Positions 41,527-52,707 of a DNA stretch of 64,000 nucleotides are shown here, one piece after another. The stretch is taken from assembly GCA_963752255.1 (NCBI GenBank), contig CAVVXT010000019.1, positions 512,001-576,000 of the forward strand, in the 5' to 3' direction. The DNA is from Nitrososphaeria archaeon (GTDB lineage Archaea > Thermoproteota > Nitrososphaeria > JACIWG01). The notes beneath the pieces were generated by a model, which did not search any database, had not been told where the DNA came from, and was given only the letters and a program-made list of their open reading frames with translations. How positions within the stretch are numbered: the stretch's first letter is position 1; every line of letters starts with the position of its first letter. The position numbers and the translations under genes were made by a program.

Positions 41527-42069
41527 GTGGTTATGGGGCAGGAAACAAGACTTTCTGGAAAGTTAAAATTAAATCGTATTGTCATTGAAAATTTTGATGA
41601 TGCCCAAGAACTTTACCAGAGTGGATTTGGAGAAAAGGAAAGGAAGAGTCTTGTGTTGAACCCCTATGAAGCGCTCTATCTTTGCAGCATTAATAGGGTT
41701 GACGTGATTGGAAAGAAGAAGATCATAAACTTTGAAAATTTAATAGGCATACTCTACAATAAAGATAAGGAAATTCTAACCAGATTTCTAGTCTATAGGG
41801 ACCTGAGGAGCAGAGGTTTTATTGTCAAAGAAGGCTTCGGTTTCGGGGTTGACTTTAGGGTCTACGATAAAGGGGAATATGGTAAAAAGACAGCAAAATA
41901 TGTCGTCTTCGTTTTAAATGAAGGAAATGATGTTAGATTTGAGAAGATCGTACAGGATGCTATCGATATTAAAAGGATGGGGAAGAAATCTATCATGGCA
42001 GTTATAGATAGAAGGGGAGAAGTGATATATTATCAGATATCTGAGGCGGTCTTTAATGCAGAAAGTTAG
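41527..42069 (+). CDS. endA: tRNA-splicing endonuclease subunit (likely structural/beta-type: catalytic His not evident)
   Basis: EALYL, VYRDLRSRGF, GFGFGVDFRVY, VIYY; KTAKYVV where H-S/A-x-Y/F is expected. Confidence 0.85.
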   Translation: MVMGQETRLSGKLKLNRIVIENFDDAQELYQSGFGEKERKSLVLNPYEALYLCSINRVDVIGKKKIINFENLIGILYNKDKEILTRFLVYRDLRSRGFIVKEGFGFGVDFRVYDKGEYGKKTAKYVVFVLNEGNDVRFEKIVQDAIDIKRMGKKSIMAVIDRRGEVIYYQISEAVFNAES

Positions 42070-49292: not shown

Positions 49293-49665
49293 AGACAATA
49301 GTCCTTACCTGATCAACTGATAAAATCCCAGATTCTACCAAGTTGGCCAAGGAATTCGTGGAAGCCTTACCAATCAGTTTCCCCATCCTTCCCCTTATCT
49401 GCCTCCACTTCAACTTAGTATTACCACTTTTTGATACGTATATGATTCCTAAAATATCTTTGGCGTCAACGAATGTGATATCTTGAATTTTTGTTAAGGT
49501 CACTTTATCAACAGCTTCGATGTATATCGATCCTGGGCCGTTCTCTTTTTCGGGAAAGACTTCTGGATCTTTAAGATAACTAATAGGCATGAAAGAGCGA
49601 CATGTGCTATCTATGAGAAAATACCTTACTTTATCCAAATGTACAGTCAGATTTATTTCTACCAT
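49246..49665 (-). CDS. Conserved hypothetical protein
   Basis: 139 aa ORF with protein-like composition (SKSGNTKLKWRQ). Confidence 0.65.
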   Translation of the reverse strand: MVEINLTVHLDKVRYFLIDSTCRSFMPISYLKDPEVFPEKENGPGSIYIEAVDKVTLTKIQDITFVDAKDILGIIYVSKSGNTKLKWRQIRGRMGKLIGKASTNSLANLVESGILSVDQVRTIVSKQEEESPSEPPKEV

Positions 49666-49730
49666 ATCATCGCCTGTCTGCTTGGTTCCAAGACAAACGT
49701 CTATAAATTAGCTATTAAATATATTTTTGT

Positions 49731-49790
49731 AGGGCGATGAGGAAAAACGGCATCGATCATTCATGAGATAGATCTTGAGTGCTGAGCCCT
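49731..49790 (+). ncRNA. Candidate C/D-box sRNA; D guide complementary to the tRNA-Leu(CAA) anticodon loop
   Basis: Terminal stem AGGGC/GCCCT, C-like ATGAGGA, C'-like ATGAGA, D box CTGA; guide TAGATCTTGAGT. Confidence 0.65.
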
Positions 49791-49826
49791 AACATATGAG
49801 AAAACATGGGAAAAGGGTATGGATGA

Positions 49827-52050
49827 TCATTCTTTGTCGATGAACTCATCCGGTGTAGGTGGCGTTTCGCTTAGACCCTTCCTCTTCCTTATTGATACGA
49901 TTAACTGCGGCAATAGACTTTGGGGAACTATATTCCATTCTTTGAAATGAGTATTCCACATAGCTTTCCCTGCCGTAGCTCCCCTCATAGCTTCACTAAG
50001 ATCGAATGTTTCAGATGCAGGAATTACGCCCTCGATTATCGTCAGAATACCCTTTTGTTGGACGTCAAGCATTCTTCCTCTTCTACCTGAAATAACACCT
50101 GCGATAGCACCTATAAGATCGCTGCTTCCTTTGACTTCGATACCTAATATCGGTTCGAGAAGCGTTGGATTCGCTAGAAGCATTGCACCCAATATTGCAC
50201 CTCTAGAAGCCGGTAGAAGCTGTGCATATGTTCTATGTGCTGAATCCTCGTGAAATTCTGCGTGATGAAGTATAACTTTAATGCCTCTACACGCTTCCTG
50301 CGCTAAAGGACCATTCTCCATCACATCCGAAAAGCCAACCTTTATCGAATCTATTGACTCTTGCATGAATTGCACACCCTTAGTTGCGTCAACGAATAAG
50401 TTTCCTTTGTTATCAACTGAAACAACATTCCTCGCTTCATCTGCGTCCCAGCCGTGCTCTCTTAATATTTTGGCCACCGTCTTTTTATCAAGTTGTTCGT
50501 TAATTGTATTATTCCTGATTAATTCAATTATTTCGGGGGTAAGGGGTTCTACTTTCATGAAGATGCGGTTATGTTTATTAGGTGATTTGGACATGATTGG
50601 ACCTGCTGAACTTCTGATTGTCTCACGATAGTTAATCAAAGGTTCAGTCGTCACAATTTCGAGTCCTGCCTGTTGTATGAGAGTGGTTGCGATTTCAAGA
50701 TGTAATACACCCATACCGGCCATCAGCATTTCTCCTGTTTCTTCATTGATCTTGACGACGAGGTTTGGGTCTTCGATAGAGATTCTTCTTAGGGTATCAA
50801 TCAATTTAGGTAGATCACGCGGAAACTTTGGCTCAACAGCAATTGTGACAACAGGTTCGGAAACGTATTTTATCACCTCAAATGGTGTTACATCTTTGAC
50901 TGAGGAAACCGTTTCTCCTGACCTGGCGGCGTCCAGTCCTAGCAGAGCAGGTATATTACCACAACCCATGAAACCTACGAGTTCTCTAAAAGGACCCATG
51001 AACATGTTAACCGATTGTATCCTCGCTTGAGTCTTAGCGTCGTGCAGGTATACTACATCACCATCATGAACTGTTCCAGAGAACAGCCTTCCAACGGCGA
51101 CGACTCCGGCTTGAGGGTCAACTACAACGTTTGTAACCATCATTACGACTGGACCCTTTTCATCACAGTTAACCAACGATTGACCGATTTCAGAATTCGG
51201 GTCACCCTTCCATATTTTTGGAATACGATATCGTTGAGCGACGTGTGGAGGTGGGTGATGTTTAATAACCATTGAAAGAATGGCTTCGTGCAACGGAAAA
51301 TTTTCCGAGAGAGTTTTCATGTCACCTTCTTCATAAGCCTTGTAGATATCGCTGAATTTTACACTTTTCTTCTGAGTGGTCGTAAAGTTGAAGCCCCATC
51401 TGTCTTTTGCTGAACCAAAAGCGACGCTGCTATCTTGTATGCTAACCTTCCACTTATCTTTATATTCGGGCTCAGCATAAATATCAATCAGATTATTAAA
51501 ATCGTTAACAATGTCCCCAAGCCAAGCCTGCATCTTTTCAGGTGAAAGCTTAAGTTCCTTGATTAACCGATCAATCTTATTAATATAAAGTACAGGACGA
51601 ACCCTCTCTTCTAAAGCCTGCCTAGTAACGGTTTCAGTCTGCGTCATCACACCTTCAACTGCATCTGAAACTACAACAACACCATCGATCGCGCGCAAAC
51701 TTCTCGTAACTCTACCGGTAAAGTCGATGTGACCAGGTGTATCAATAAGGTTAATAACATATGGAACGTTGTCTTGCTCATAGTAAAGTGTGACGTTTGC
51801 TGCTTTGATGGTCATCTGCCTTTGCTGTTCCAAGTCCATATAATCCAGAGCTAGCGCTTGCCCAGCGAGGGAAGGATTGAGCATACCGCATGCGGCGAGG
51901 AGGCTATCGCTCATCGTCGTTTTACCGTGGTCTACGTGAGCAACAACGCCCAGATAATTCGGGCTAGAATTGTTATTTCTAGGCCTTTCGAATCTGGTCT
52001 TTGTTGCCTATAATCTTTAATGCTTCCGTTGTAGACTTATATCTTGGCAT
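49827..52050 (-). CDS. fusA: Elongation factor 2, two exons: join(52050..51987, 51955..49827), 730 aa after splicing
   Basis: Exon 1 MPRYKSTTEALKIIGNKDQIR; exon 2 (N)LGVVAHVDHGKTTMSD, DTPGH, NKID, diphthamide-loop HEDSAHR. Confidence 0.93.
51956..51986 (-). other. 31-nt bulge-helix-bulge (tRNA-type) intron in the EF-2 mRNA
   Basis: CCAGA-TTCG-AA|A-GGCCTAGAA..TTCTAGCC-CGAA-TT|A-TCTGG; removal restores frame and the conserved IRN.G..AHVDHGKT. Confidence 0.88.
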
Positions 52051-52104
52051 AGTAAATCATACACTAAACCACTAAACAGATACTTTTAAAAGATTTTGGT
52101 AAAT

Positions 52105-52707
52105 CTATTCGATGTTGGCATGTCTCCTACGCATCTCTGCCTCTTCAACATTAAGTTGCTCCATCAATGATGCTACGACAGAATCCAGAAGCAACATCGC
52201 GCTATCCTCAAAGACAGTGCCGAGAGGGGCTAGAGGTTCATGCAAACCTAATATCTGCCTTGCAAAATAGTCTTTTGTAGACACTTCTATTCGACCTCTA
52301 AGAAGTACCGTATGAGTTGATAGTTTAGCAAGTGATGAAGAAGGATAAGACGTTAAGGATACAATTCTAGCGCCAACTTGTTGAGCTGCTTGGGCGGCTG
52401 CGACAATCAGTTTTGTTGAACCAGAGCCAGATATAGCAATAACTAAGTCGTCCTTGTCTATTGAAGGCACGATTGTATCTCCAAGGACGAATGCATTAAA
52501 GCCTAGGTGAAGTAAACGCATTGCGAAGGCCCGTCCGACAAGTCCACTTCTTCCTGCACCCATTATGAGGACTTTGTTACTTTTATGGGATTTAAGAATT
52601 TCGATGAACTGTTCAACTTCTTTTTCTTCGAGTTGGGATAGATTTTCCTTGATGACATCTAAGAGAATAATAGCTTTGTCTTTGACCTTTGTGCTATTAT
52701 TGCTCAT
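52105..52707 (-). CDS. hxlB: 6-phospho-3-hexuloisomerase (SIS domain)
   Basis: GAGRSGLV, FAMRL, ISGSG, APLGTVFE, RRHANIE. Confidence 0.92.
   Translation of the reverse strand: MSNNSTKVKDKAIILLDVIKENLSQLEEKEVEQFIEILKSHKSNKVLIMGAGRSGLVGRAFAMRLLHLGFNAFVLGDTIVPSIDKDDLVIAISGSGSTKLIVAAAQAAQQVGARIVSLTSYPSSSLAKLSTHTVLLRGRIEVSTKDYFARQILGLHEPLAPLGTVFEDSAMLLLDSVVASLMEQLNVEEAEMRRRHANIE

Follow-up and report, generated by a model that had tools for sequence, protein, structure and literature searches.

The window analyzed here is a 64,000-nucleotide (nt) stretch of a Nitrososphaeria archaeon genome (GenBank assembly GCA_963752255.1, contig CAVVXT010000019.1, positions 512,001 to 576,000), and its minus strand carries a gene for elongation factor 2 (EF-2) whose reading frame is interrupted near the 5′ end. 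Translation from an ATG at 52050 would read MPRYKSTTEALKIIGNKDQIRKA*; the frame of the first exon enters the insert as KA* and ends there at a TAG at 51981-51979 (minus strand). The body of EF-2 (..LGVVAHVDHGKTTMSD..) resumes in a different frame and continues down to 49827. In this second frame, the first ATG, GTG or TTG lies downstream of the P-loop and begins a 695-amino-acid (aa) open reading frame (ORF; 49827-51914) starting MSD, and Pfam EF-2 domains are recorded for P0087, which is identical to this 695-aa product. Exon 1 (51987-52050, minus strand) is 64 nt long, comprising 21 codons and the first base of an Asn codon (MPRYKSTTEALKIIGNKDQIR + A); homologues without the intron, such as P0012 (MPRYKTTSEALKIIRNKDQIRN..), have matching N-termini. 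Exon 2 (49827-51955, minus strand; 2129 nt including the stop codon) begins AT CTG GGC, (..N)LGVVAHVDHGKTT. A TATA-box-like element, TTTTAAAAG, lies 33-41 nt upstream of the ATG (52083-52091, minus strand) and was read from the sequence as a putative promoter; the motif stands at an equal distance from the ATG in other EF-2 loci of the window's family.

The 48 bases from 51997 to 51950 of the minus strand read CCAGA-UUCG-AAA-[24-nt hairpin]-CGAA-UUA-UCUGG, which is a complete bulge-helix-bulge (BHB) motif with both flanking helices (hBHBh′), evident in the sequence and in the centroid fold. The outer helix pairs CCAGA (51997-51993) with UCUGG (51954-51950) over 5 bp, and the 4-bp central helix pairs UUCG (51992-51989) with CGAA (51961-51958). 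The two 3-nt bulges, AAA (51988-51986) and UUA (51957-51955), sit on opposite strands, each 3′ of its own central-helix strand, and the inner helix belongs to an intron hairpin (51985-51962) formed by GGC/GCC and UAGAA/UUCUA around one bulged C (3 + 5 bp). This arrangement of bulges and helices is that of archaeal tRNA introns. The RNA from 51940 to 52005 folds with a minimum free energy of −20 kcal/mol (z = −4.1), a stability equaled by 0 of 200 shuffled sequences. In the text available from PMC2738675, BHB motifs are cleaved between the second and third bulge residues, which here predicts cuts after 51987 and after 51956. The candidate intron is thus 31 nt long (51956-51986, minus strand) and consists of the third base of bulge 1, the 24-nt hairpin, CGAA and bases 1-2 of bulge 2.

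Removal of these 31 nt in silico leaves 64 + 2129 nt, or 730 codons and a stop. The spliced reading, ..CAG AUU CGA A|AU CUG GGC.., gives QIRNLG within a 730-aa EF-2, and the predicted protein would contain the tryptic peptide NLGVVAHVDHGK preceded by ..DQIR. An earlier, sequence-only reading of the window had described an EF-2 frame that starts at 52050, meets a stop and resumes in another frame, and this agrees with the ORF layout. It had also described a canonical BHB, every detail of whose helices, bulges and hairpin proved correct, and cuts that remove exactly 31 nt to yield QIRNLG and a 730-aa EF-2, which hold in silico.

The insert recurs among relatives of the source genome. The window's order comprises 10 species genomes of one family (f1), and all nine genomes in which the 5′ end of the gene was recovered carry an insert at the same site (31, 31, 30, 32, 31, 31, 26, 31 and 30 nt); the tenth genome, 76% complete, had no EF-2 match at all. 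The nine hairpins differ by compensatory changes and each insert folds as a BHB, its removal at the BHB sites giving the identical junction QIRNLGVVAHVDHGK in every case. The protein encoded by exon 2 is 85-97% identical across the family. In a first sample from other families of the class, 19/19 loci were uninterrupted (QIRNFG). We then searched 401 genomes of the class with a pattern combining the BHB 3′ half and the P-loop codons. This pattern matched 25 genomes, and the reversed control pattern matched none. The matches fell in f1 (9/10, the window's own genome included), f11 (10/10), f14 (4/4), f19 (1/1) and f20 (1/1), with none in f5 (0/224), f12 (0/78) or f13 (0/11). Family f11 groups with Ca. 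Nitrosocaldaceae / Ca. Nitrosocaldus (P0062 is so labeled, and P0265 is 99% identical to an f11 locus), and f14 groups with Ca. Nitrosomirales (P0251 is so labeled and lies in the cluster of P0094). In Ca. Nitrosocaldus, the intron at this site measures 37 nt (G115).

Because EF-2 proteins labeled Bathyarchaeia begin MGIIAH, the search was extended to proteins of the phylum and to a generalized pattern. In a phylum sample, 22/401 genomes matched, which added ten families outside the class; the pattern occurred in f26, f28 (7/8), f34 (4/4), f39 (2/2), f43, f47 (2/2), f61, f63 and f76, and was not found in f5, f22, f25, f27, f29, f30, f31, f35, f38 and others. Both searches drew on samples and strict patterns, so that these counts are lower bounds. 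In all, the same-site intron was found in 45 genomes of 14 families and in 4 metagenome contigs. The intron is old and widespread, occupying one site in 14 families of the phylum that include lineages labeled Ca. Nitrosocaldus, Ca. Nitrosomirales and Bathyarchaeia.

These 49 sequences, all parsed as BHBs, form the set in which we compared structure at this site (site A). The BHB geometry is present in 49/49. The introns take 17 different lengths from 16 to 63 nt that fall into all three frame classes (length modulo 3 of 1 in 24 sequences, 2 in 13 and 0 in 12). Removal at the canonical sites in silico gives ..(I/V/L)RN(L/F/I)G(V/I)(V/I)AH(V/I)DHGK in every one. The central helix is UUCG/CGAA in 35 sequences, UCCG/CGGA in 11, UUCG/CGAG in 2 and UCCG/CGGG in 1. 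Bulge 1 is AAA in 43, AAU in 5 and UAA in 1, and the third base of bulge 2 is always A. In the window, a cut after the second or the third bulge base would give the same product; the f14 and f20 relatives fix the register, because their bulge 1 is AAU and RNFG arises only from a cut after the second base. The shortest intron at this site, in L076 (G245, f11), is 16 nt (A GGUUUAACC CGAAUA), and its hairpin of 3 bp and a 3-nt loop is near the minimum able to present a BHB.

Pairing was then scored over 13 base pairs in a MAFFT alignment of 48 distinct sequences. In this alignment, 88.1% of cells were paired, compared with 77.7% in shuffles (0/500 reached 88.1%), and pairing fell to 50.1% and 58.7% when partners were slid by one column in either direction. 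For covariation, the alignment scored 0.347 and the shuffles 0.148 (0/500 reached the observed score). Seven pairs change on both sides, in 77 cells, compared with 12-26 cells under a one-column slide. All cells of the central helix (100%, 48/48 sequences) are paired, and one of its pairs is U-A in 37 and C-G in 11; this exchange is a synonymous change of an Ile codon in the exon, matched within the intron. In the inner helix, 96.8% of cells pair and two positions each show 3-6 types of pair; the hairpin as a whole covaries freely.

Exon 1 is conserved as a coding unit. Within the class it is always 64 nt long (29/29 sequences). Its DNA varies at 18 of 21 codons, mostly through synonymous or conservative changes, so that the conserved peptide must be under selection in spite of its disconnection from the remainder of the gene; in the 49-sequence set, exon 1 is a conserved coding unit in other classes as well. 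The central-helix codons 20-21 (ATT CGA) do not vary at all (29/29), whereas Arg codon 3 uses five codons. Of 47 distinct site-A sequences, 39 have the stop of the unspliced exon 1 frame exactly at intron codon 3 (TAG 20, TAA 10, TGA 9), compared with 5.8% for shuffled interiors and 0/49 in each of the other two frames. Quick termination on unspliced mRNA may have been selected; alternatively, the shared stop could come from common ancestry and the constraint of the hairpin.

The genome encodes the enzymes that such an intron would need. An EndA-family gene in the window (41527-42069, plus strand; 180 aa; TIGR00324 68.1 bits vs. a cut-off of 59.6) aligns with the structural, N-terminal halves of EndA models that have two repeats and is read as a structural (beta-like) subunit. 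Set against the EndA catalytic triad, this protein appears to lack the catalytic His. A second, catalytic-type EndA (C12:201075-201623) matches the C-terminal, catalytic halves of the same models. The two paralogues are 29% identical and both exceed the TIGR00324 cut-off, and PF01974 likewise has two matches over its cut-off. RtcB is encoded as well (PF01139, 1 match, 563.9 bits). According to the available text of PMC5829648, an (alpha-beta)2 EndA is typical of Thaumarchaeota and accepts relaxed motifs. The structural-type gene lies about 10 kb from EF-2.

Over the whole genome, aragorn found 35 tRNA genes, six of them with introns of 12-45 nt, and several of these introns share the BHB topology (e.g. 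the 32-nt intron of tRNA-Met). Some sit at non-canonical positions, e.g. 32/33 in tRNA-Ala, and further intron-bearing or split tRNAs may have been missed. No sequence similarity was found between the EF-2 intron and the tRNA introns of this genome, and the intron sequence, with as many as 9 mismatches allowed, occurs nowhere else in the genome. The cbf5 gene of this genome is uninterrupted (TIGR00425 positions 5-322).

Public records of EF-2 from intron-bearing lineages are mis-called in the way that an unrecognized intron would produce (P0265, P0087, P0119, P0002-P0007, P0062, P0070/71, P0077, P0088 and P0094). They start past the P-loop (MSD.., 690-695 aa) or at MAHVDHGK (705 aa), or they read through the intron (714-727 aa). 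A RefSeq ‘MULTISPECIES’ EF-2 of Ca. Nitrosocaldus, for example, is 705 aa long and begins MAHVDHGKTT. Odd N-termini in the databases (MASPNDFGVIAH.., MKTKFERFNPNNFGVIAH.. and MAIKTRFEWCEGKTFRPNNFGVIAH..) correspond to the exon 2 frame read back through the BHB 3′ half. With a Ca. Nitrosocaldus-like exon 2 as query, the listed matches of at least 90% identity were all truncated or read-through forms of 578-727 aa, with no 730-aa form among them.

A tRNA-type intron is supported because the insert keeps an identical position, its lengths fall into three frame classes, its pairs change in compensation, exon 1 is constrained, and the genome encodes EndA and RtcB. On these comparative grounds the 31 nt at 51986-51956 are very probably an archaeal BHB intron in the coding sequence of the only EF-2 gene; cleavage, ligation and a spliced mRNA are what we infer from this. 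The same grounds support the core of the sequence-only reading, which had proposed a BHB intron in the EF-2 mRNA on whose removal the protein depends.

Several observations weigh against this interpretation. The outer helix is only 71.7% paired and is weak or irregular in many relatives, with one pair mostly unpaired in the fixed register; part of this weakness comes from a bulged base that displaces the register in many lineages. The aligned sequences are related rather than independent, and the shuffle statistics given above accordingly overstate significance; double changes inside single families (e.g. f28) are still hard to explain otherwise. The RNLGVVAH junction occurs in 0 of 240 listed database proteins (120 of near-full length and 120 shorter). 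In a metagenome collection searched with the flanks 0-30 free bases apart, none of 7 records had adjacent exons; six were EF-2 introns of 26-30 nt and one was a chance match (L051). No RNA run was present among the runs that hold the locus, which has no bearing on expression.

A BHB-like fold alone is, moreover, common. A strict hBHBh′ scan of the whole genome gave 342 matches compared with 353 in a mirror-image control, and 14 compared with 32 where ORFs are joined. A second, relaxed scan, with limits of ≥3 bp for the outer helix, ≥6 bp for the inner helix and ≤80 nt for the intron, gave 236 compared with 223, and 12 compared with 15 joining ORFs. Neither scan is enriched, and judged by eye none of the other matches was convincing. 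The strict scan recovers 1 of the 6 aragorn tRNA introns and the relaxed scan misses EF-2, so that the absence of other mRNA introns is not implied. It is thus the comparative evidence, not the fold alone, that places the BHB of the window beyond chance. The sequence-only reading had envisaged a wider, annotation-invisible class of mRNA introns and had proposed a genome-wide BHB scan of other ‘frameshifted’ core genes. Its prediction of invisibility to annotation is matched by the records that start MSD.. or MAHVDHGK.. or read through the intron. The wider class is seen only as wide taxonomic spread and as a second EF-2 site (see below); further mRNA introns in this genome did not emerge above the mirror control from these insensitive scans.

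Could the insert instead be an artefact, or be dealt with in some other way? The window derives from a draft genome (2.1 Mb, 19 contigs, 94.7% complete), which is what an assembly or sequencing error has in its favor. However, contigs from four studies of soil and peat metagenomes (X1 record 2, X4 record 9, X6 record 13 and X8 record 18, one of which may be the window's own source) span 51956-51986 with 0 gaps and no joints, and the insert occurs with diverged sequences in the 45 independent genomes and 4 metagenome contigs. An artefact, to which we would give practically no chance, is refuted, and the insert is real DNA. The public 695-, 705- and 714-727-aa products might suggest a truncated gene with an internal start (MSD.. 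or MAHVDHGK..) or a decaying pseudogene. Yet this is the sole EF-2 copy: the only other match in the genome is weak (E 1.5e-4) and belongs to another GTPase, and no other intact EF-2 gene, one part of a refuting condition named in the sequence-only reading, was found. The exon 2 frame has no ATG, GTG or TTG upstream of the P-loop, and the G domain of an EF-2 that starts past the P-loop or lacks the first beta-strand would be expected to be non-functional. The constancy of exon 1, in the class and beyond it, and the conservation of the exon 2 protein across the family also run counter to decay, leaving truncation or a pseudogene very improbable.

Translational recoding by frameshifting, stop readthrough or hopping, as in phage T4 gene 60, has a superficial appeal, since the insert lies 22 codons into the ORF and has an early stop and a hairpin, much like a bypassed segment. 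It seems to us exceedingly improbable. A single frameshift cannot serve insert lengths in all three modulo-3 classes, and the 12 in-frame inserts contain stops. The only repeated codon fit for both take-off and landing (CGA) lies at a fixed offset that is out of frame with exon 2, and recoding leaves the conserved 3-nt bulges and the covarying 4-bp helix unexplained. The insert might, finally, be removed from RNA by another nuclease and ligase or at other cut sites, given that the outer helix is relaxed in many lineages and that EndA is here a predicted enzyme. Against this, EndA recognizes exactly this geometry, and the reading frame requires cutting at the canonical positions. The introns (16-63 nt) are far below the size of self-splicing ribozymes, and an Rfam scan of 51700-52300 found no curated RNA family and no group I or II ribozyme core, its best match being a chance one of 19.4 bits vs. 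a gathering score of 100. We regard another route of RNA-level removal as improbable.

For the BHB intron, we propose the following course. In the pre-mRNA, bases of exon 1 would pair with bases of exon 2 to form the outer helix, and the last codons of exon 1 (AUU CGA) with the 3′ end of the intron (CGAA) would form the 4-bp central helix, exposing the two 3-nt bulges. A heteromeric EndA, with its catalytic subunit encoded on C12 and its structural subunit in the window, would cut after the second base of each bulge, and RtcB would join the exons and probably circularize the intron. The product, ..CAG AUU CGA A|AU CUG GGC.., would then be translated into an EF-2 of 730 aa whose first beta-strand and P-loop are intact. 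Without splicing, the mRNA would give only a 23-residue peptide, because the stop lies three codons into the intron.

We next considered the history of the intron. In a quick single-gene EF-2 tree (95 rows, LG+G4), in which gain and loss are indistinguishable, the presence or absence of the intron requires 4 changes of state, and starred branches force at least 3 of these. Families f11 and f14 form one clade, and the sister group of the window's family lacks the intron. Origin of the intron in a single clade was considered and is not supported by these 4 changes of state. The patchy distribution fits repeated precise loss or lateral spread. One old gain followed by several precise losses, as has been argued for cbf5, appears favored because the introns share an identical site and a common core, AU(U/C)CGAA | A GG..CC CG(A/G)A, although a tree of one gene does not distinguish this course from lateral spread.

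It is conceivable, though we think it unlikely, that the EF-2 introns are an ancient, phylum-wide device kept by selection, which would gate EF-2 through EndA/RtcB and a race between splicing and the ribosome as an archaeal analogue of HAC1/XBP1. Hints of such a device are that 14 families keep one site and three others have a second one at a distance of 8 codons, that the third-codon stop is kept while its identity changes, and that synonymous sites in the pairing exon bases are frozen. In a variant, the introns would be, or would once have been, mobile and would home to DNA that encodes P-loops. A coupling of elongation capacity to EndA/RtcB activity by the intron, as the sequence-only reading had it, is speculation.

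EF-2 is a recurrent host of insertions, namely casposons, inteins and BHB introns at two sites. The second canonical BHB site, AH|VDHGK, lies 8 codons downstream of the window's site and was found in 10 genomes of three other families: f35 genus g96 (6), f51 (3) and f53 (1), at loci L093, L094, L099 and L111-L117 (genomes G416, G430, G437, G444, G493, G595, G514, G600, G690 and G561). Its central helix is GCCC/GGGU in 6, GCGC/GCGU in 3 and the once-mismatched GCGC/GCGA in 1; one bulge reads AUA or ACA and the other AAG or UGG, and the introns are 30-36 nt long. In G008 (L005/L032, G008:C2, about 49300-51300), EF-2 carries both a BHB intron and an intein, with an open frame of 1339 aa, the intein following directly after AHVDHGK (..GK|CVSEDS....VHN|TTMSD), 11 codons downstream of the intron. 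Open frames of 1324-1372 aa in the EF-2 of G035, G010 and G036 also suggest inteins. Thaumarchaeal casposons are described in PMC6563490 as integrating most often into ef-2.

The closest precedent is the intron in cbf5 of Crenarchaeota (Watanabe 2002; Yokobori 2009, PMC2738675), already named as the mRNA precedent in the sequence-only reading. Like the EF-2 element, the cbf5 intron is a short BHB intron inside a protein-coding ORF, lies at the codon of a functionally critical and highly conserved residue, has predicted cuts between bulge residues 2 and 3, and is linked to a heteromeric (alpha-beta)2 EndA; both are distributed patchily, which for cbf5 was read as gain and loss. The two differ in that the host gene here encodes an essential translation GTPase, in taxonomic range (Nitrososphaeria and other classes for EF-2, Crenarchaeota for cbf5), in the presence of two insertion sites in EF-2, and in the motif, which is canonical in EF-2 and relaxed in cbf5. 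Splicing was shown experimentally for cbf5, whereas for EF-2 it is predicted from sequence comparison. Cbf5-type introns are recognized by their place in the codon for the catalytic Asp of cbf5; the EF-2 intron lies elsewhere and would work alike as a separate family.

In the accessible portions of papers from 2018, 2019, 2020 and 2025 (PMC5829648, PMC6379350, PMC7714728 and PMC12397907), cbf5 of Crenarchaeota is cited as the sole archaeal ORF in which a BHB intron is known. One further mRNA BHB intron is added in PMC7714728, in the 5′ untranslated leader of HVO_1309 of Haloferax volcanii; that mRNA is processed by the splicing endonuclease, as we propose for EF-2, but the intron leaves the reading frame uninterrupted. 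In open full text, no description of a BHB intron in EF-2 was found (subscription journals lie mostly outside this reach, and a prior report is possible).

The BHB introns of archaeal tRNA and rRNA share the EF-2 motif and presumably the same enzymes. In contrast to these substrates, however, the EF-2 transcript is an mRNA open to ribosomes, and the strands of its outer helix and one strand of its central helix are coding, so that they are doubly constrained. In eukaryotes, HAC1/XBP1 processing removes a short mRNA intron independently of the spliceosome, with ligation by RtcB in metazoa, and changes the reading frame. The endonuclease of that system is IRE1 rather than EndA, and HAC1/XBP1 is a regulated stress switch, whereas regulation of the EF-2 intron is only proposed. 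The inteins of archaeal EF-2 are likewise selfish-type insertions in the P-loop-coding region; unlike a BHB intron, they are removed at the protein level and the frame stays open.

We judge the BHB intron in EF-2 mRNA to be real and apparently undescribed. It would be the second case of an archaeal ORF interrupted by a BHB intron and would bring the mechanism known from cbf5 to a new and more consequential gene, for EF-2 is an essential, highly expressed core translation factor. The intron occurs, at two sites, in far more lineages than that of cbf5, including ammonia oxidizers labeled Ca. Nitrosocaldus and Ca. Nitrosomirales. Archaeal mRNA splicing can now be tested directly in enrichment cultures that already exist. 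Gene callers systematically mis-annotate the intron-bearing EF-2 genes. EF-2 often serves as a phylogenetic marker; where it does, truncated calls could affect marker-gene trees and protein family models. For the biology of these archaea, the intron raises the question of how splicing would compete with coupled translation.

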